This document shows positions 1 through 5,084 of a DNA stretch of 5,084 bases, piece after piece. The notes under the pieces were generated by a model. That model saw nothing but the letters and a program-made list of their open reading frames with translations, did not search any database and was not told the origin of the DNA. How positions within the stretch are numbered: position 1 is the first letter of the stretch; every line of letters starts with the position of its first letter. The position numbers and the translations under genes are program-made. The stretch lies in IMG/VR virus record IMGVR_UViG_3300029057_000122, positions 1-5,084 of that record, one strand, 5' to 3'. Origin of the DNA: a virus.

Positions 1-95
1 CTCCAATACCATTGATATAGATGTTGCCGATACCGGCCTTAACATCATCAATGCTTTGATGCAAAATGTCGGTCAGTTTGCTTTCATTGTTTCTC
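1..95. repeat. Terminal redundancy: exact copy of 4990-5084, marking the circular junction of a 4,989-nt genome
   Basis: Bases 1-95 (ctccaataccattgatatagatgttgcc...ttcattgtttctc) recur identically at 4990-5084. An ORF runs in frame across this join. Confidence 0.9.
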
Positions 96-154
96 TCCTT
101 TGTTTCGGTGCTGTTGTTCTCCGTGTGCTTATTCGAAAGGCGGTGGAAGGGTGA
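2..154 (+). CDS. C-terminal 50 codons plus stop of the same pIII-like CDS, wrapped around the junction
   Basis: Frame-2 codons from position 2 continue ...SNTIDIDVADTGLNIINALMQNVGQFAFIVSLLCFGAVVLRVLIRKAVEG*, with the stop TGA at 152-154. Confidence 0.7.
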   Translation, partial: SNTIDIDVADTGLNIINALMQNVGQFAFIVSLLCFGAVVLRVLIRKAVEG

Positions 155-282
155 CATTTCTTGATTTCTTCAAAGGCGTTATTACTTTCTTCGGTGCTGG
201 CGGGGCTTACGTCATTGCTTTTGTTGTCCTGCTCGTTGGTCTTGGTGTTTATAAGTTTGTGAAGGACTGGTTGCCATGGTAA
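151..282 (+). CDS. 43-aa leaderless small hydrophobic virion protein with pVIII/Pf3-coat-like architecture; a major or minor coat candidate
   Basis: GTG at 151 overlaps the pIII-like stop (GTGA), a translational-coupling arrangement, with GGTGG/GGAAGG just upstream. Product MTFLDFFKGVITFFGAGGAYVIAFVVLLVGLGVYKFVKDWLPW has an acidic N-terminus, a Gly-punctuated TM core (compare M13 pVIII ...AMVVVIVGATIGIKLFKKF) and a Lys-containing C-terminus. The ORF track lists this frame from TTG 100, but that start lacks an SD. Confidence 0.5.
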   Translation: MTFLDFFKGVITFFGAGGAYVIAFVVLLVGLGVYKFVKDWLPW

Positions 283-296
283 ATTTTGTTGAAACT

Positions 297-446
297 ATGA
301 AGGTGTGCACAGCCTTTGTTGCTAACATTCTTTCTATGTCTTTCTTCGGTTTCGGCACCTTCGGCAATTTCGTTCTAGTTTGTTTAGCACTTTCGCTTGT
401 CGGCTTTGTGCTTCGTTCAATCTGGGGTGGTGATAACAGTGATTGA
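297..446 (+). CDS. 49-aa small hydrophobic membrane protein (pVI/pVII/pIX-type candidate)
   Basis: ATG at 297. Product MKVCTAFVANILSMSFFGFGTFGNFVLVCLALSLVGFVLRSIWGGDNSD has two hydrophobic segments. Its 3' end overlaps the next start (GTGATTGA). The SD is weak. Below the size cutoff of the ORF track. Confidence 0.4.
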   Translation: MKVCTAFVANILSMSFFGFGTFGNFVLVCLALSLVGFVLRSIWGGDNSD

Positions 447-1074
447 GATTCCTAAAATTGTATACGGCCCTTGGCAAGATGCTCATGATGGCCGCATGTA
501 TTATACCGTCATGTATGACGGTCAAGACAAGTCCGAGGATATGCTTGTAGACGCTTACGATTATCTCGTAGCTTCTGCAAAGGCTGTGGAGACGCTGGAT
601 CAGCAGCAGTCCGCATCTGAGTTGGTGCCTGCGCAGTCCCCGCCTGAGCCGGCAGAAATTGTTCCTGTTGAGGAAGACCATACCGGCCTGCCGGAATATG
701 TGACAGCTCCTGAGGAGATGGAAGAGCTGCCGTTTGAAGGGAGTTTAACCGCATATGATGACCGAGCAGCAAATACTCCAGCTTTGTATGCTAATCTCCC
801 TGCTGTTAGTAATTCTTTCACTAACATTATGGATTGGTTCGGCGATACGTTTTTTATTGAACGTACTGAGACGGTTCATACATCCGGCTATACATCTCAA
901 AGGATCTCCACTTCTTCTTCGTATCAACTTATTCAACTGCCGTATGAGGAAGATTCCACGACTACTTCCCAAGTTCTCAACCCGCAAGCGTGCGTTTCTG
1001 CTCTTCTTGTTGTCCTCGTTTTTATTACTACTGTTACTTGGCTTAAAAACGCGATCTGGGGGCGCATGTACTGA
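439..1074 (+). CDS. 211-aa acidic, Pro/Ser/Thr-rich protein with a C-terminal TM anchor; function unknown. Track start is TTG 397, giving 225 aa
   Basis: Frame-1 ORF with GTG 439 preceded by GGGGTGGTGA (alternatives are TTG 397 and ATG 496). Contains an acidic Pro-rich linker ELVPAQSPPEPAEIVPVEEDHTGLPEYVTAPEEMEELPFEG, a Ser/Thr-rich region, and a C-terminal hydrophobic helix ACVSALLVVLVFITTVTWLKNAIWGRMY. No signal peptide. Stop TGA 1072-1074 overlaps the next ATG (TGATG). Confidence 0.6.
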   Translation: MIEIPKIVYGPWQDAHDGRMYYTVMYDGQDKSEDMLVDAYDYLVASAKAVETLDQQQSASELVPAQSPPEPAEIVPVEEDHTGLPEYVTAPEEMEELPFEGSLTAYDDRAANTPALYANLPAVSNSFTNIMDWFGDTFFIERTETVHTSGYTSQRISTSSSYQLIQLPYEEDSTTTSQVLNPQACVSALLVVLVFITTVTWLKNAIWGRMY

Positions 1075-1187
1075 TGGAAATTCTACCTTTTCAGTTCTGC
1101 TTCGGTATATTCTCGGTTCCTGAAATTGGCTATTTCATTGTTTTTGCCGCTGTTTTTTGCATGTTGGTTCTCCTATTCCGTCCGTGA
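1074..1187 (+). CDS. 37-aa very hydrophobic small protein (pVII/pIX-like minor virion or membrane protein candidate)
   Basis: ATG 1074 overlaps the upstream stop by one nt. Product MEILPFQFCFGIFSVPEIGYFIVFAAVFCMLVLLFRP. Third codon positions are T-rich. Confidence 0.4.
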   Translation: MEILPFQFCFGIFSVPEIGYFIVFAAVFCMLVLLFRP

Positions 1188-1216
1188 GTAGGTTCCAAAA
1201 TATTTTCGAAAGGGTG

Positions 1217-1315
1217 ATGACTTCAGACTCCTACTACTTCTATCATTGGTACGCTGCTTTCTCAGGTCGGCGAATTTTTCACTCAGATGATTACTTGGAT
1301 GGGTCAACTGATTGA
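1217..1315 (+). CDS. 32-aa ORF with a strong SD; possibly a leader ORF translationally coupled to the coat-like ORF it overlaps
   Basis: AAAGGGTG then ATG 1217. Product MTSDSYYFYHWYAAFSGRRIFHSDDYLDGSTD. Stop 1313-1315 lies 14-26 nt past the ATGs of the overlapping frame-3 ORF. Confidence 0.2.
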   Translation: MTSDSYYFYHWYAAFSGRRIFHSDDYLDGSTD

Positions 1316-1415
1316 CTTTTACGAGGAGCAGCCAATTCTCCTTGTTTTCGTCATTCTGACGATTGCAAGTATCGTGCTTCGTCTTCTCCGTCGCTGGATT
1401 CCCGGTCGCTCCTAA
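1287..1415 (+). CDS. 42-aa leaderless major-coat-protein candidate (Pf3/pVIII-like)
   Basis: Product MITWMGQLIDFYEEQPILLVFVILTIASIVLRLLRRWIPGRS has an acidic N-terminus (DFYEEQ), a 16-residue hydrophobic core and a C-terminal cluster of four Arg, the canonical inovirus major coat layout. It is followed immediately by a strong terminator, as gene VIII is in Ff phages. There is no clear SD. The frame is open and T3-biased upstream to 1221 without a canonical start, so the true N-terminus is uncertain (ATG 1299 is also possible). Confidence 0.45.
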   Translation: MITWMGQLIDFYEEQPILLVFVILTIASIVLRLLRRWIPGRS

Positions 1416-1420
1416 TGTGA

Positions 1421-1470
1421 GAGAAAACGCCGCCGACCATTTTTTTGGTCGGCGACGTTTTCTCGTTTTA
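1421..1470 (+). terminator. Rho-independent terminator or attenuator hairpin after the coat-like gene
   Basis: GAGAAAACGCCGCCGACCA (1421-1439) pairs with TGGTCGGCGACGTTTTCTC (1446-1464), a 19-bp stem with one mismatch and a T6 loop, followed by GTTTTAAG. Confidence 0.6.
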
Positions 1471-1487
1471 AGAAAGGATTATATGTC

Positions 1488-2108
1488 ATGCTTTATGGTA
1501 TTCTTATCTTTTGTGTTTGCTGGTTATTTGTTTATATCGATAACTATTGCAAAAACCCCTACAAATTGGAGGCTGTTGTGGGTTCAAAAGGTTCTGGAAA
1601 ATCTCTGTATATGTCTCGTGTTGCTGACCGCTGGCTTCGTTCTAACAAGGGGCTTATCTATTCTAATATGGGTATTGGTTACGAGTTAGAATCGGAATAT
1701 TGGAAACAGTCCTTTCTCCCTGATTCCCTTATTCTCATAGATGAGATTGGCGTCCTCCATTCTAACCGTGATTTTAAGTCTATGCCCCGTGAAGCTGTTG
1801 AATTTTTCAAGATGCAGCGCAAGTATCATCTGACAATTATTGTTAGCAGTCAGACCATGGATTTTGATAAAAAGATTCGTGACCTCTGCGACCGTATCTA
1901 TTTATGTAACCGGATTGGCTGGTTCTGCCGTCTCACTCCCTATCGCTCTTGTATCGCTATGGAACATCGCCCTGAGGGAGGCCAAGAGCTGGTTAACACG
2001 GTGCGAAAGGCGGGTCGGGCTAAGTGGTATACTATTCCAAAGTCCGTGAAGCAGGTAAGTGGTTTAGAATACGATACGGAGCAGGTTATCAGCAAGACCT
2101 CGAAATAA
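1488..2108 (+). CDS. Zot/pI-family assembly (morphogenesis) ATPase, short form of 206 aa with only the N-terminal P-loop domain
   Basis: AAAGGA lies 9 nt upstream of ATG 1488. Walker A GSKGSGKS and Walker B LILIDEIG are present. The sequence aligns in pattern with M13 pI (VTGKLGSGKT; LLVLDECG; HARKLGWDIIFLVQD versus QRKYHLTIIVSSQ). An N-terminal hydrophobic segment MLYGILIFCVCWLFVYIDNY precedes the P-loop. There is no C-terminal TM or periplasmic domain. Third codon positions are strongly T-biased. Confidence 0.85.
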   Translation: MLYGILIFCVCWLFVYIDNYCKNPYKLEAVVGSKGSGKSLYMSRVADRWLRSNKGLIYSNMGIGYELESEYWKQSFLPDSLILIDEIGVLHSNRDFKSMPREAVEFFKMQRKYHLTIIVSSQTMDFDKKIRDLCDRIYLCNRIGWFCRLTPYRSCIAMEHRPEGGQELVNTVRKAGRAKWYTIPKSVKQVSGLEYDTEQVISKTSK

Positions 2109-2115
2109 AAAACTT

Positions 2116-2154
2116 CCCCCCGTGCCCTTTAGGGTTAGGGGGGTTGTTTTTTTT
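2116..2154 (+). terminator. Rho-independent terminator after the pI/Zot gene
   Basis: CCCCCC-GTG-CCC-TTTA-GGG-TTA-GGGGGG forms a stem with an internal loop, followed by TTGTTTTTTTT. Confidence 0.65.
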
Positions 2155-2409
2155 AATAATTTTTATTTTTTTTATCTCCTTGAGCCTTGAAAGCCTTGCT
2201 ATTGCTGACTTTTTTGTTTCTGGTGCATCGTGCGGCTCTCCGGGCAGTTGCAACGTTTAGTCACGCGATAGCGTCTCCACCGCGTCCCCCGTCCCCGCAA
2301 GGGCAAAGCCCTTGCCCTTCCAAAACAAACTGGCAGGGGCTACCGTTGCGCTCCTTGCGGCGTGATGGTGGGGAAGGTGTAATACCCCCACCTGAGTAGA
2401 AGAAAGGGT
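2155..2409 (+). other. Non-coding intergenic region: an AT-rich tract then GC-rich structured DNA; candidate rolling-circle origin and packaging signal
   Basis: No ORF here shows coding bias. The region has T-runs (2155-2222), then GC-rich DNA with a tandem GTCCCC/CGTCCCC repeat and a perfect hairpin. This is the analogue of the Ff intergenic region and lies directly upstream of the rep promoter. Confidence 0.45.
2297..2315. repeat. Perfect 8-bp stem, 3-nt loop hairpin GCAAGGGC-AAA-GCCCTTGC in the intergenic region
   Basis: Exact inverted repeat read from the sequence. It is flanked by C-rich and G-rich runs and may be an origin nick-site or packaging hairpin. Confidence 0.4.
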
Positions 2410-2438
2410 TTGACAAGCCCCCCCGCCTGTGGTATGGT
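2410..2438 (+). promoter_or_regulatory. Sigma70-type promoter for the rep-ssb (and probably whole-genome) transcript
   Basis: TTGACA (2410-2415), a 17-nt spacer containing a C7 tract, a TG extended element at 2430-2431, and TATGGT (2433-2438). RBS AAAGGAGA at 2454-2461 and ATG at 2467. Confidence 0.6.
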
Positions 2439-2466
2439 TGCTGTAAAGAGTGAAAGGAGAAATATC

Positions 2467-3612
2467 ATGAGTACTTACGTTTTACGCCTTGACTATGCAA
2501 CTTTTGCCTTTACGCCCGGGTCGGTCGATTTGAACCGTGTGCAGTCGGTTCTTGCTGCTGGTGCTGACCTTGCTTTTCGTCAGTTTGGCATTTATGACAC
2601 TTCACCTTATCAGTCTCCCTTGGGATTGTACTATAAGCCGTATTGCGGCTCGAAAGAGAATCCGCATATCTTGCAAGTCTCCGGCTCGGCCTGTGAGCAT
2701 TTCCGTGAAACGCTCCCTTGTCTTGGTAAGGTTCTCCGCGATGGCGGGGAGCAGGCGCATTTCCGGCGTCTTGATTTCGCTTTCGATGTTATTATGTCCC
2801 GCTCCGACTGGCGTAAGTTTCTTTCTGATTGTTTCGCCTATTCGATGGAGCAGAACCGTCATAGAAAAAAGTTCCTGCTGCAAGGTTCCGGCGAAGCCAT
2901 GACTATTTATATCGGTTCTCGTAATTCTGACCACTTTTTCCGTGTCTATAACAAGACGCTTCAAGACCCTTCCTATTTGTTTATCAACGCTGACGGCACT
3001 ACTACTCCTGTTGCCGATGATCAGTGCGTTATTCGTTATGAGATTGAGTGCAAGCGCGTTAGTCGTTCTCGTGGCGGTCAGAATGTTACTTTTGACCCCT
3101 CCCCCATGTTTGACTGGTATTATTCCGATTCCCAGTTGCTTTTTGATGAGGTCAAAAAGCAGTGGCTTTCTTTTGGTAATGAAGTAATGCTCCCTGCCGG
3201 CTTCGAAGATGCTTCTTTTGTCACTGACATTGACGTGAAACACCTGCATCCGCTTGTAGGGGATATTGTATCCCCTTATAAGGAAGTCTGCTATGCCAAT
3301 GTCTCCGCGCGTCTCCATGACTATCCTCACGCTTTCGAACGGTCGCTTGAATTCGCCGCCCAGCGCTATGGCGCTTATGTACCCTATCTGCTTAGAGATG
3401 AGCGTTTGCTTACCATCTGCAAGGAAGCTGCTCGTGTTCGCTTCGGCTTTGACATTGATTTTTATGTTGACTTTGATGATACAGGCCGTTTTGAATTTGA
3501 AGTGATTTCCGATGATTCTTTCTCCCCGTGGTCAGAGGTCGGAGAGTTTGAACAAATAGATATTCTAAAAGGAAAGGAGCAATTAGTCTATGCGGATTTT
3601 GGTTGTAGGTAA
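2467..3612 (+). CDS. Rolling-circle replication initiation protein, Rep_trans family (381 aa)
   Basis: Motifs VSGSACEHF...HFRRLDFAFDV and IYIGSRNSDHFFRVYNKT match the Rep_trans (PF02486) signature seen in plasmid and inovirus Rep proteins such as RstA. Strong SD and ATG at 2467; the track start at 2410 lies inside the promoter. Third codon positions are T-biased. Confidence 0.9.
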   Translation: MSTYVLRLDYATFAFTPGSVDLNRVQSVLAAGADLAFRQFGIYDTSPYQSPLGLYYKPYCGSKENPHILQVSGSACEHFRETLPCLGKVLRDGGEQAHFRRLDFAFDVIMSRSDWRKFLSDCFAYSMEQNRHRKKFLLQGSGEAMTIYIGSRNSDHFFRVYNKTLQDPSYLFINADGTTTPVADDQCVIRYEIECKRVSRSRGGQNVTFDPSPMFDWYYSDSQLLFDEVKKQWLSFGNEVMLPAGFEDASFVTDIDVKHLHPLVGDIVSPYKEVCYANVSARLHDYPHAFERSLEFAAQRYGAYVPYLLRDERLLTICKEAARVRFGFDIDFYVDFDDTGRFEFEVISDDSFSPWSEVGEFEQIDILKGKEQLVYADFGCR

Positions 3613-3832
3613 ATCCCGCCGAGCTGGTACCTCTAAGGCTGGCAAAGACTACGATTTTACTACTCTCATGGTCGAGTATGACATGCGTGCAAACGATGAT
3701 AACTCGGGCGTGCAGGTCGATAGAATCAACGTTAGTGCCTCTATGATGCCTTTCGCGTTGGTAGAAGTTGGTGCAACCTATAATCTCGACTTTGACCGTA
3801 ATGGGTATCTGCTCGGTGTCGAAAAAATTTAA
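3590..3832 (+). CDS. Putative ssDNA-binding protein (gene V analogue), 80 aa
   Basis: AAGGAG lies 10 nt upstream of ATG 3590, and the ORF overlaps the rep 3' end by 23 nt. Size and position immediately after rep match inovirus pV. There is no recognisable motif, so the call rests on synteny. Confidence 0.5.
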   Translation: MRILVVGKSRRAGTSKAGKDYDFTTLMVEYDMRANDDNSGVQVDRINVSASMMPFALVEVGATYNLDFDRNGYLLGVEKI

Positions 3833-3854
3833 TTTCAACCTCCATTCACTCTTT

Positions 3855-3870
3855 GGCCGCTCCGGCGGCC
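3855..3870. repeat. GC hairpin GGCCGC-TCCG-GCGGCC immediately upstream of the tRNA
   Basis: Perfect 6-bp GC stem with a 4-nt loop. No T-tract follows, so it is not a terminator. It may be a processing or stability element. Confidence 0.35.
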
Positions 3871-3873
3871 TCT

Positions 3874-3947
3874 GGCGGGGTGGTGCAACGGTAGCACATC
3901 ACGCTCTGAACGTGAAACTTCTGGTTCGAATCCAGACCCCGCAACCA
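3874..3947 (+). tRNA. tRNA-Gln (anticodon CUG) with an encoded CCA
   Basis: Manual cloverleaf fold. Acceptor 3874-3880 pairs with 3937-3943 (6 bp plus a G1.A72 mismatch). U8. D-stem GTGC/GCAC with loop AACGGTA (G18 G19). Anticodon stem TCACG/CGTGA with loop CTCTGAA (U33, CUG, A37). A 4-nt variable loop. T-arm TCTGG-TTCGAAT-CCAGA. Discriminator A, then CCA. Resembles bacterial tRNA-Gln. Confidence 0.8.
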
Positions 3948-3967
3948 TTTAGAAAGGAAGTGCCGAT

Positions 3968-5084
3968 ATGCGTAAATTTAAGATGGGCATTCGCAGACTC
4001 GGGGCTTCCTTTGCTTCTTTTTTAATGGTTTGTTGTCTTTCCGCTCCGGCGTTCGCTGCTAATAATTGGCCTGTTTCTCCTTCTGATTCTGATTTTCGGG
4101 CTCATCCGAATTCTTGGTATGTTTGGCAGCGTAAATCTATTTCTGCTTATACCGGCTATGAGTTAATTTGTAGTCCTGTTGAAGAATCTTCTAGATACCC
4201 TGATTGTTTGTCGTCTGGTTGGTTTCCATATTCTACCGATTCTGGAACTTGGTCTTATTCTTCATCTAATTCTAAGCGTACTTATATGTATGCTGTTCCT
4301 TATATTCCTAGTTCTGATTTCGGTTATCTCTCTGATTTTCCCGTTTTCCCTGTTGGTGAACCTTCTTTTTCTACTGGTGTTCTTCGTGTTTACCCTGTTA
4401 AGTGGCGCGGGTATTTGAGTGGCATTTCTGATGTCTTTTCTGACCGTTCTGTATTCGGTTATTTGACTTCTTGGCCTTCCAATTCTTCTTCTTCTTCTTA
4501 TTCTGATTATTTCAATAACGAAGTTCTTAATTACAAGCCTATTTATTTTCCATCTAACATTTTCTTCTTTGGGGATAAAACTGATACTTCGACTAATCAT
4601 ACTTCTTTCTCCATTCAAAATGGAGATAATAATTTCTGGGCTACTCCTTCTAATAGTAATTATTTGCATTTGTCCAAGTCTCATTTGAGTACACCGGGGT
4701 TTCGTTCTTTCCCCTCTAATTTTTCTATTCCCTCTTCAGATGTTGGGCTCGTTTTTTGTAAGCGACCTTCTGGAGATGGTATGCACGTTTATAACTCGGA
4801 ATTTGATGTTTCTCTATCTTTTGGATTATCTCTTTGGGTTCCTGACGCCTTGCTTCCTGCTGATGTTGCTGTCGGTGACTGGATTTCGAAGACTGATGTT
4901 GAATCTCTTCAGGATCAGCTGGTAAAAGATTTCGATGTCAACTCCGATACTCTAGAAAACTCAAAGCAAAATTTCGATTCTTGGCAAAACTCCAATACCA
5001 TTGATATAGATGTTGCCGATACCGGCCTTAACATCATCAATGCTTTGATGCAAAATGTCGGTCAGTTTGCTTTCATTGTTTCTC
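3968..5084 (+). CDS. pIII-like minor coat/adsorption protein. Runs to the window edge and continues across the circular junction to a TGA at 152-154; full length about 391 aa
   Basis: ATG at 3968 preceded by AAAGGAAG 8-9 nt upstream. N-terminus MRKFKMGIRRLGASFASFLMVCCLSAPAFA|ANNW is a classical signal peptide with an AxA cleavage site. The body is Ser/Tyr/Phe/Pro-rich with paired Cys. The C-terminus (read in copy 2-154) is a hydrophobic anchor FAFIVSLLCFGAVVLRVL followed by IRKAVEG. Third codon positions are T-rich. The frame has no stop through 5084 and is missing from the ORF track only because it has no in-window stop. Confidence 0.7.
   Translation, partial: MRKFKMGIRRLGASFASFLMVCCLSAPAFAANNWPVSPSDSDFRAHPNSWYVWQRKSISAYTGYELICSPVEESSRYPDCLSSGWFPYSTDSGTWSYSSSNSKRTYMYAVPYIPSSDFGYLSDFPVFPVGEPSFSTGVLRVYPVKWRGYLSGISDVFSDRSVFGYLTSWPSNSSSSSYSDYFNNEVLNYKPIYFPSNIFFFGDKTDTSTNHTSFSIQNGDNNFWATPSNSNYLHLSKSHLSTPGFRSFPSNFSIPSSDVGLVFCKRPSGDGMHVYNSEFDVSLSFGLSLWVPDALLPADVAVGDWISKTDVESLQDQLVKDFDVNSDTLENSKQNFDSWQNSNTIDIDVADTGLNIINALMQNVGQFAFIVS
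4990..5084. repeat. Second copy of the terminal redundancy (same as 1-95)
   Basis: Exact 95-nt match to the window start, inside the coding sequence of the pIII-like gene. Confidence 0.9.

Follow-up and report, generated by a model that had tools for sequence, protein, structure and literature searches.

Why would a filamentous phage with a genome of 4,989 nucleotides (nt) keep a transfer RNA (tRNA) gene, and how would its coat gene be translated when it lacks a canonical start codon? Both questions are raised by IMG/VR record IMGVR_UViG_3300029057_000122, positions 1-5084 (hereafter the window, meaning the whole 5,084-nt stretch), and the evidence that we bring to them is computational throughout. 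The window holds the full circular genome, 4,989 nt long, of a filamentous phage of WW-nAnB type (Tubulavirales) with gut Oscillospiraceae as hosts. Its tRNA gene, at 3874-3947, had been overlooked in a first-pass annotation made from the DNA letters alone. We consider it quite likely, from the comparison of related genomes (referred to here by L numbers), that this tRNA is an initiator of phage lineage whose anticodon was switched from CAU to CUG and which starts coat synthesis at a CAG codon.

The tRNA gene and its initiator-type acceptor stem

ARAGORN calls the gene tRNA-Gln(CTG) on the coding strand, and the Rfam tRNA model matches it with 58.6 bits. It is present in all six GenBank relatives examined first, none of which annotates a tRNA, and in 33 of 37 IMG/VR relatives, the four without it being the shortest contigs. 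The only earlier record of the tRNA that we came across is an ARAGORN listing, without analysis, in the 2019 survey of Morgado and Vicente. Neither a tRNA nor a CAG-start coat gene is annotated in the deposited relatives' records that were examined, and Billaud et al. 2021 and Sugimoto et al. 2021 mention no tRNA for inoviruses. That single-stranded DNA (ssDNA) phages carry no tRNA genes, as stated by Chithambaram et al., is a textbook statement that this gene overturns.

The tRNA gene is under selection. Among 37 distinct sequences, 92% of the cloverleaf pairs are formed, whereas shuffles reach 76.5% and slid controls no more than 52.5%, and double-sided changes fill 109 cells against 26 expected. 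All five anticodon-stem pairs covary (98.4% pairing), while the anticodon is invariant within clades. In 25 complete genomes the tRNA forms a conserved island with a mean pairwise identity of 0.83, flanked by the spacer (0.48), by the genes for the replication initiator Rep and for gene B (0.55-0.64) and by gene C, which encodes a putative adsorption protein (0.51). It always lies directly 5' of gene C, whose Shine-Dalgarno sequence (SD) follows the CCA end by a few nucleotides.

We assign the tRNA to the initiator type because of its 1x72 mismatch, its A73 and its best match to the E. coli initiator tRNA-Met. The pair 1:72 is unpaired in 36 of the 37 sequences (G, C or U against an invariant A72), position 73 is A, CCA is encoded, and A at 72 and 73 is nearly invariant; in the window's own tRNA the mismatch is G1xA72, with A73 and a CCA that is part of the gene. 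Elongator tRNA-Gln has a U1-A72 pair and, in systems with glutaminyl-tRNA synthetase (GlnRS), G73. The phage tRNA thus carries the anticodon YUG of tRNA-Gln, CUG in the window and not the initiator CAU, yet it has G1xA72 and A73, and its best full-length match in 5,426 complete E. coli genomes is tRNA-Met, not tRNA-Gln, at a median of four places per genome. The E. coli match that we inspected is the middle gene of a triple tRNA-Met cluster beside mltA, which we take to be the initiator genes metZWV. The phage tRNA of L041 shares with that E. coli tRNA-Met the whole acceptor stem (CGCGGGG/CCCCGCA), the C1xA72 mismatch and A73, and its anticodon loop CUCUGAA differs from CUCAUAA only at positions 35-36. 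The pairs G2:C71, C3:G70 and G4:C69, which are formylase determinants, occur in 37 of 37 sequences and are the same in E. coli metZWV. To summarize, the phage tRNA and bacterial tRNA-fMet (E. coli metZWV/metY) have the acceptor stem, the 1x72 mismatch, A73 and a loop of the form CUCNNAA in common.

A search of IMG/VR with the 5'-half backbone suggests where such a tRNA may have come from. In 58 of the 77 matches the tRNA was tRNA-Met(CAT), mostly on tailed-phage contigs, and many of the CAT-anticodon members also have the 1x72 mismatch together with G-C-rich anticodon stems. No small contig with the CAT anticodon has a Zot homologue, so none is an inovirus. The inovirus tRNAs would therefore appear to be anticodon-switched members of a phage-borne family of initiator-like tRNA-Met.

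Two further observations concern the variability of these sequences. Among phages with Zot proteins at least 92% identical, the anticodon stem (3899-3903 with 3911-3915) exists in more than ten variants around a constant loop, and this hypervariability could stem from an arms race with a host nuclease, or from relaxed constraint. In the tRNA of L038 (the original WW-nAnB record, JN402401; 1578-1646) the anticodon loop is 8 nt long and a deletion affects the D loop, and the coat frame of L019 is disrupted; both are possibly sequencing or assembly errors.

The coat frame and the match between anticodon and start codon

Two stop codons, TGA TGA, immediately precede the coat frame, in which ATG, GTG and TTG are all missing until ATG1287. 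In relatives the frame is conserved upstream to 1221, where it reads LQTPTTSIIGTLLSQVGEFFTQ-M..., and its indels come in multiples of three. The diversity at the three codon positions is 0.12/0.06/0.34 upstream of ATG1287 and 0.11/0.03/0.40 downstream, a signature also seen in the Zot gene. In 25 of 25 complete genomes the SD, GAAAGG(G/A) at 1208-1214, is followed by 9 nt and then by CAG at 1224. The tRNA-less Dulem virus 75 has a homologous protein that starts with ATG at the aligned position (METTTS... versus QTPTTS...). Hence the coat-type reading frame that the first-pass annotation, like ORF callers, had drawn as a 42-amino-acid ATG frame (1287-1415) had to be extended to a gene of 63 codons beginning at CAG (1224-1415). 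Its product, (Q)TPTTSIIGTLLSQVGEFFTQMITWMGQLIDFYEEQPILLVFVILTIASIVLRLLRRWIPGRS, is a putative major coat protein, as judged by its size, its acidic N-terminal part, its membrane segment, its basic C-terminus and its position.

The anticodon and the coat start codon co-vary strictly: in 14 of 14 tRNA-bearing inovirus lineages, which fall into six codon classes, the anticodon is the complement of the coat start codon. Outside the window clade, the coat-frame codon at SD distance is CAA in L008, whose anticodon is TTG, ACG in L049, L050 and L051 (CGT), TAG in L063 (CTA), and CAG in L005 and L067 (CTG). Six of the 14 lineages come from a blind set, eight further GenBank genomes (L190-L197) fetched after the first lineages had matched. 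Here ACT goes with AGT (L190, L196), ACA with TGT (L191), CAG with CTG (L193, L194) and ACG with CGT (L195), and the two members without a tRNA, L192 and L197, have ATG at this place. Altogether, ten tRNA-less lineages use ATG or GTG at the aligned coat start (12 loci, covering L046, L047, L048, L056/57, L061, L065, L068, L069/71, L072, L192 and L197).

The coat proteins of L067 and L050 are near-identical except that their first codons are CAG and ACG, respectively, each matching its own tRNA. Gene C in these two genomes also opens at an SD and the cognate codon, and with this start a normal signal peptide is restored in each (QRKLFIILILVFALSASVYA and TRRILILLLVASLCFAV). In the ACG/ACT/ACA series a synonymous change is followed by anticodon position 34, and direct codon-anticodon pairing is therefore hard to avoid as an explanation. 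As a rough estimate, four independent class matches at 1/64 each would occur by chance with a probability of about 6e-8, which rises to about 4e-5 when the codon may stand at any of five positions near the SD.

Two tandem coat paralogues are found in L005, L051, L194 and L195, the first with a start cognate to the tRNA and the second with a canonical ATG or TTG; in L005 the first lies at 4323-4505 and the second is the next open reading frame (ORF) before Zot. Such pairs of a special and a canonical start fit a regulatory role.

Alternatives and a possible mechanism

How else could these observations be explained? The cloverleaf might mainly be a signal, recognised for RNA processing or for its structure, that separates the replication module from the structural one, or the folded ssDNA might offer a site for priming or recombination; decoding would then not matter. 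Its constant place directly 5' of gene C, where an SD follows CCA within a few nucleotides, its location between two modules of high variability and the absence of a promoter-like site parting it from the genes for Rep and the presumed ssDNA-binding protein would suit such a signal, as would the GC hairpin 3 nt upstream in the window and the non-canonical loops of some lineages. A pure processing signal, however, predicts neither an anticodon that is invariant within clades while all five pairs of its stem covary nor anticodon switches that are mirrored by the coat start codon about 2.2 kb (kilobases) downstream on the circle, and we regard this alternative as unlikely; RNA processing as such is compatible with an initiator tRNA and is probably part of its story. 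Less likely still is an elongator tRNA-Gln(CUG) that supplements the decoding of CAG, with the coat protein made from ATG1287 at 42 amino acids. This would agree with the ARAGORN call, with the classical view of phage tRNAs as codon supplements (PMC4032129) and with a use of CAG slightly above CAA in the phage (26 versus 18). Nevertheless, the 1x72 mismatch, A73 and the best match to an E. coli initiator tRNA-Met are features of an initiator and not of tRNA-Gln, the part of the frame that precedes ATG1287 changes in the manner of coding DNA, and Met22 is internal in tRNA-less relatives. Supplementation also leaves it unexplained why the anticodon tracks a single codon at SD distance, TAG and the ACG/ACT/ACA series included, and we rejected it as the function of the tRNA, as the usage of CAG and of Gln codons in general is unremarkable.

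Translation of the coat gene might instead begin at a canonical codon, either the out-of-frame ATG1217 or a different one, with a programmed +1 frameshift to follow, or at a near-cognate codon such as CTT. ATG1217 does follow the SD and is conserved in the WW-nAnB clade, but only 2 nt separate it from the SD, relatives do not conserve the protein in its frame, and it is absent from L008, L049 and other lineages that keep the SD and the cognate codon; as the co-variation with the anticodon would again go unexplained, we think this route very improbable. Finally, many prophages integrate in tRNA genes (PMC6813254) and integrated relatives of this phage exist, so that the tRNA could be an attachment site (att), or the contig an artefact of a tandem or integrated copy rather than a free circle. 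In the integrated genomes L076 and L079, however, the tRNA is internal and the junction repeats correspond to window positions 3261-3277 inside Rep, and in L067 the tRNA is internal as well. We discarded the tRNA as phage attachment site (attP) on these junctions; with three independent assemblies closing the same circle and nearly all Zot-bearing contigs measuring 4-6 kb, this last alternative is hardly credible.

Several points nevertheless count against an initiator tRNA that starts coat synthesis at CAG. Apart from reading CUG in place of CAU, the phage tRNA differs from tRNA-fMet in its shorter D loop, in U11:A24 (37 of 37 sequences) instead of the initiator A11:U24, and in its anticodon stem, which in the window is A-U, C-G, G-C and lacks the initiator's three consecutive G-C pairs (29-31:39-41), a run that many CAT-anticodon members of the phage backbone do have. 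The anticodon loops of some lineages are odd, with a pyrimidine at position 37 or, in L063, C33. An in-frame GTG abuts the SD in L005 and L067, and a TTG immediately precedes the cognate codon in L050 (ACG) and in L063 (TAG); in these four genomes canonical initiation and subsequent decoding or suppression of the cognate codon is possible. The window clade, L008, L049 and L051 have no canonical alternative near the SD, and the main ORFs of L063 require no readthrough of TAG. The 63-amino-acid product matches no Pfam or PHROG family, so the coat role has no family support. Finally, the host probably lacks GlnRS and uses the route of GluRS (glutamyl-tRNA synthetase) and GatCAB, where the charging of a CUG tRNA would be a difficulty.

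For the initiator tRNA that we favor, the gene order suggests a possible course of events. The promoter-like site at 2410-2438 upstream of Rep is the likely start of a polycistronic transcript, which would continue past Rep and gene B into the tRNA and the structural genes and end at the terminator behind the coat gene, although some of it would read on into Zot. Cleavage by RNase P and processing of the 3' end would free the tRNA and so part the replication messenger RNA (mRNA), ending in the hairpin at 3855-3870, from the structural mRNA. Once RNase P has cut, this hairpin may lend stability to the 3' end of the mRNA upstream of the cut; it is kept in close relatives only, in one of them with a G-T wobble, and is absent from other lineages. 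The tRNA would be charged, probably by way of its anticodon, and probably formylated. The SD at 1208-1214 would then position the 30S subunit so that the tRNA is placed in the ribosomal P site at CAG1224, and the amount of coat protein made would depend on how much of its own tRNA the phage has accumulated. As a speculation, the benefit might lie in the timing or dosage of a membrane-toxic coat protein during chronic infection, or in insulation from the host, with the gene silent outside the phage context. The phage itself replicates by its Rep_trans protein, is put together by its short Zot/pI ATPase in the absence of a secretin and can integrate via a 17-bp (base pair) site in its own Rep gene.

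Changed anticodons are known to redirect initiator tRNAs. In E. coli, CUA or CUG on tRNA-fMet confers Gln identity, and NGU on tRNA-Met confers Thr identity. Varshney and RajBhandary, in 1990, and Schulman and Pelka reportedly found that CUA variants of tRNA-fMet are charged with Gln and initiate at UAG, and that tRNA-Met can be switched to Thr identity by anticodon changes. Engineered initiators with mutant anticodons, such as tRNA-fMet(CUA) and i-tRNA(AAC), follow the same logic, in that initiation moves to the complementary non-AUG codon after an SD. They are laboratory constructs, whereas here the tRNA and the start codon have apparently co-evolved naturally in a 5-kb ssDNA phage. Phages with suppressor tRNAs offer another comparison. 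Borges et al. 2022 reportedly described suppressor tRNAs and stop-codon recoding in gut phages, where, as here, a phage tRNA alters codon reading in late or structural genes; the CUA anticodon and TAG start of L063 come closest. Suppressor tRNAs recode internal stops during elongation, whereas in the inoviruses the initiation codon alone would be concerned and the tRNA has initiator features. The literature that we searched contained no natural precedent for an anticodon-switched initiator with a matching start codon. A design for phage biocontainment with engineered initiators of this kind has been described (10.1101/2024.07.29.605542).

Is such a system restricted to inoviruses? Among the matches of the backbone search are also tailed-phage contigs whose initiator-like tRNA has the anticodon CCT or CAG. 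The 33-kb tailed-phage contig L145 carries a tRNA with anticodon CCT at about 5180 (reverse complement); an ORF resembling the small terminase subunit (Terminase_4, 23.9 bits, just under the cut-off) opens at an SD followed by 10 nt and AGG, a portal-like ORF opens likewise, and both (6321 and 11700, reverse complement) are without a canonical upstream in-frame start. L145 may thus hold an AGG-start system, which we treat as a lead and not as a result. It is reasonably likely that phage initiator tRNAs have switched repeatedly (to CUG, UUG, CUA, CGU, AGU and UGU in inoviruses and to CCU in a tailed phage) and that the start codons of structural genes switched with them to the exact Watson-Crick complement, a natural form of orthogonal initiation. 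In that case the phage's tRNA would be needed to make the coat protein, in some phages the adsorption protein as well and possibly terminase and portal, with the genes concerned invisible to standard gene callers. L083, L092 and L155 are A-rich phage contigs with an initiator-like tRNA (N1xA72, A73, CCA) of anticodon CAG near the edge of the locus; no ORF with an SD and CTG was present in the fetched DNA, which ends near the tRNA.

If true, this would be, to our knowledge and in the literature open to searching, the first natural dedicated initiator tRNA for codons, a stop codon included, that are neither AUG nor near-cognate; such tRNAs have so far only been engineered. It would account for a probable major coat gene that has gone unannotated, and it foresees systematic gene-calling errors in phages with such tRNAs. 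The phage tRNA would also receive a function where models of codon usage and anti-defence leave it unexplained, and natural pairs of orthogonal initiator and start codon would become available for synthetic biology and phage biocontainment.

The phage genome, its relatives and its host

The features of the circle are collected in Table 1. The terminal repeat, which the first-pass annotation had read as a redundancy of 95 nt closing a circle of about 4,989 nt, is an exact one: the ends (1-95 and 4990-5084) are 100% identical and leave a 4,989-nt unit. Exact copies of the window's proteins are also encoded on three independent human-gut assemblies (L052-L054) of 5,116, 5,044 and 5,044 nt, which give the same 4,989-nt unit once their terminal overlaps of 127, 55 and 55 nt are subtracted. 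Their breakpoints differ from one another, their units differ from the window at 1-6 positions, and the lengths of their overlaps equal typical assembler k-mers. Because three independent assemblies share the unit, with other breakpoints and k-mer-sized overlaps, we conclude that the repeat is the assembly overlap of a closed circle and neither an att duplication, the artefact against which the circle was to be checked, nor a biological terminal redundancy. The ORF that had been noticed to read across the junction is gene C, with 391 codons from 3968 through the junction to 154.

Table 1 Features of the window (IMGVR_UViG_3300029057_000122), ordered by position
Feature	Position	Strand	Details
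Terminal overlap	1-95 = 4990-5084	.	Assembler overlap across closure of the 4,989-nt circle
Gene C, C-terminal part with membrane anchor	1-154	+	Stop at 152-154
Gene D, small membrane protein, 43 amino acids	151-282	+	GTG start overlaps gene C stop; phrog_22214, E 7e-21
Gene E, small membrane protein, 56 amino acids	276-446	+	phrog_24276, E 5e-25
Gene F, 211 amino acids, C-terminal membrane anchor	439-1074	+	phrog_27347, E 4e-87; 'protein F' in MT135293
Small membrane protein, 37 amino acids	1074-1187	+	phrog_27039, E 6e-24
Coat-gene SD GAAAGGG	1208-1214	+	In 25/25 complete relatives
Putative major coat gene, 63 codons	1224-1415	+	CAG start at 1224-1226
Intrinsic terminator-like hairpin and T run after coat gene	1421-1470	+	19-nt arms
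Gene H, stand-alone Zot/pI-type assembly ATPase, 206 amino acids	1488-2108	+	Walker A GSKGSGKS
Terminator-like hairpin and T run after Zot	2114-2152	+	Coordinates approximate
Conserved intergenic island with hairpin GCAAGGGC-AAA-GCCCTTGC	2251-2325	+	75 nt, identity 0.88
Promoter-like site, best in window	2410-2438	+	TTGACA, 17-nt spacer, TG-TATGGT; 10/12 consensus match
Gene A, Rep_trans rolling-circle initiator, 381 amino acids	2467-3612	+	PF02486; phrog_27843, E 1e-74
Inverted repeat GGGGATA-TTG-TATCCCC and TT inside Rep	3258-3277	+	att core 3261-3277
Gene B, RstB-like, 80 amino acids, probable ssDNA-binding protein	3590-3832	+	phrog_929, E 5e-4
GC hairpin GGCCGC-TCCG-GCGGCC	3855-3870	+	Perfect; 3 nt upstream of tRNA 5' end
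Initiator-type tRNA	3874-3947	+	Anticodon CUG at 3906-3908; ARAGORN; Rfam 58.6 bits
Gene C, first part, putative adsorption protein, 391 amino acids	3968-5084	+	ATG, SD AAAGGAAG; phrog_24417, E 1e-58

The gene content largely agrees with what had been proposed for this DNA. Hidden Markov model searches placed both Rep_trans and Zot above the Pfam cut-offs: Rep matches PF02486 with 36.4 bits (cut-off 29.6) over residues 98-198 only, and Zot matches PF05707 with 25.3 bits (cut-off 20.3), phrog_25712 with an E value of 5e-144, and also phrog_197 (Zot-like) and phrog_1675. The + strand is indeed rich in T (34.4%, with 20.8% A) and carries all plausible ORFs. No secretin, integrase or repressor ORF was found in the window by ORF listing and by Pfam and PHROG searches, as had been noted before, and the small membrane proteins of coat type next to a short, stand-alone Zot/pI ATPase were also borne out. 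Genes D and E are called as genes in L052-L054, too. The pI/Zot-type ATPase and the small circle with genes on one strand and a rolling-circle initiator are those of Tubulavirales (Inoviridae sensu lato).

For two proteins the proposed function stands in part. Gene B probably encodes an ssDNA-binding protein: the match to phrog_929 is accompanied by a full-length identity of 28% (E 3e-11) to an 'RstB-like' protein of bajarodino virus 60, so the earlier call is plausible with weak support. A sequence search of the PDB gave no match for gene B, and its AlphaFold model, made from a shallow alignment, had a pLDDT (predicted local distance difference test) of 45.5 and was unusable. Gene C had been called pIII-like, and its position, signal peptide and C-terminal anchor fit an adsorption protein, whereas homology to pIII of the Ff phages is absent. 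It has no Pfam match, and its sole PHROG family (phrog_24417) is without an assigned function; its N-terminal two thirds are highly variable among relatives. We therefore keep it as a putative adsorption protein, by the analogy drawn by Cantalupo et al. (PMC3187576). That it precedes the coat genes had been described correctly, yet this order is the norm for the whole group. The intergenic island at 2251-2325 has an identity of 0.88, compared with 0.16-0.55 in its flanks, and the intergenic region folds with a z score of -3.1; the island is a candidate packaging signal or single-strand origin.

The genome alone is ordinary, a further member of the well-known and extremely common gut 'non-A non-B hepatitis' inovirus group (WW-nAnB), one of the most often assembled gut inoviruses. 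Almost every ORF of the window matches a small PHROG family very strongly, which implies that close relatives have already been deposited. The closest records are porcine: 'Inovirus sp.' MT135293 is 83% identical over 98% of the window length, and MT135296, MT135305 and MT135292 are similarly close (83-85% identity); all four stem from the Pigs_VIRES survey (PMC8269232). In IMG/VR, 37 contigs encode a Zot protein 92-98% identical to that of the window, and the closest Zot cluster in a collection of 15 billion proteins has 3,081 members, nearly all Zot-bearing contigs being 4-6 kb long. WW-nAnB itself is a 4,818-bp circle assembled from sewage virions (Cantalupo 2011, PMC3187576). Since the window matches MT135293 at 83%, belongs to a 3,081-member Zot cluster and falls in a group (WW-nAnB / X53411) already described in 2011 (PMC3187576), it is not novel, contrary to the first-pass view. 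Nor is its size near the lower limit, as related complete genomes reach down to 4,134 nt (Dulem virus 75).

Morgado and Vicente 2019 list, in their supplement, WW-nAnB JN402401, KJ003982 and KJ003981 with exactly the tRNA coordinates of L038, L025 and L023, and we infer that these three contigs are the GenBank records. The window shows high identity to, and collinearity with, JN402401, KJ003981/2 and MT135293. WW-nAnB and MT135292/293/296/305 share with it the order A (Rep), B, tRNA, C, D, E, F, small ORFs and H (Zot), a circle of about 4.8-5.5 kb, Zot proteins 94-99% identical and, over 70-98% of the window, a nucleotide identity of 78-85%; it is in Rep, in gene B and towards the N-terminus of gene C that the sequences diverge most. 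The group has been recovered from virion preparations (PMC3187576), and filaments were seen by electron microscopy in pig viromes (10.1101/2021.05.20.444921); together with the T-rich strand, these are indirect signs of a filamentous ssDNA virion. Studies of pig and human gut found hundreds of such circles and predicted Clostridia as hosts (Billaud et al. 2021 preprint; Sugimoto et al. 2021). Propionibacterium phage B5 and the Firmicutes inoviruses of pig and human gut are likewise small, have hosts of Gram-positive lineage and a stand-alone Zot, and lack a secretin. Scans of IMG/VR with the Zot proteins of L063 and L049 returned no new relatives.

Some observations concern the annotation of these relatives. 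Several GenBank records of bajarodino viruses place the start of gene C within a tRNA that they do not annotate (L190, tRNA 2354-2427 and coding sequence (CDS) 2368-3849; L049, 2428-2501 and 2442-3914; L196, 2954-3027 and 2953-4404). The porcine records carry only 1-4 annotated CDS, and the annotation of the whole group needs revision. Most of the tRNA-less relatives sampled (L046-L048, L056/L057, L192, L197) carry a repressor or helix-turn-helix gene, whereas WW-nAnB-type tRNA bearers have no repressor; L067 and L191 hold both, so the correlation is not strict.

Integrated copies, for which a search had been suggested, do exist, and the phage is thus not purely episomal. In L076 (GCA_027494185.1) and L079 (an ENA metagenome) a WW-nAnB-type genome lies within chromosomal DNA with a GC content of 55-62% and with a gene for an SLH-domain protein to its left in both. 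The inserts are bounded by direct repeats of 15-17 bp, TATCGCATCCCCTTA in L076 (9675-9689 and 14630-14644) and GGATATCGTATCCCCTT in L079 (9672-9688 and 14916-14932), which map to 3261-3277 of the window. As the junction repeats map inside the inverted repeat of Rep, attP lies within the Rep gene and integration splits it. The hairpin at the att site, GGGGATATTGTATCCCC, is likewise within Rep, and in pT181 the origin sits inside repC. By this analogy, the Rep hairpin at 3258-3277 may be the nick site of Rep, and integration may be mediated by Rep or linked to nicking, without an integrase. More distant relatives that carry a repressor are also integrated (L056).

The HSP20 encoded next to the L076 insert is identical to a protein named from Oscillibacter sp., and RadA adjoining another integrated copy (L007) clusters with Oscillospiraceae proteins. 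As these neighbors of integrated copies are Oscillospiraceae-like, the host is placed in Oscillibacter / Oscillospiraceae, in keeping with the Gram-positive lineage that the first-pass annotation had considered. A scan of genome contigs for Zot relatives gave two loci only, one of them L007 (CAVDWO010000002.1). This contig, of 95.9 kb and about 65% GC, is labelled Alistipes onderdonkii; it carries genes for RadA, a CwlD-like amidase and CotJ-like spore-coat proteins and is probably mis-binned. Its phage homology stops right after the Zot terminator, a junction unlike those of L076 and L079. A different arrangement is seen in L067, where an inovirus module occupies about 2090-7950 of a 42-kb IMG/VR contig between tailed-phage genes, with a large terminase on one side and a helicase, VRR-NUC and a primase on the other. 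The module comprises an XRE repressor, an ORF resembling ssDNA-binding proteins, a different Rep, tRNA-Gln(CTG), gene C, coat genes and Zot, and is either an inovirus inserted in a tailed prophage or a chimeric assembly.

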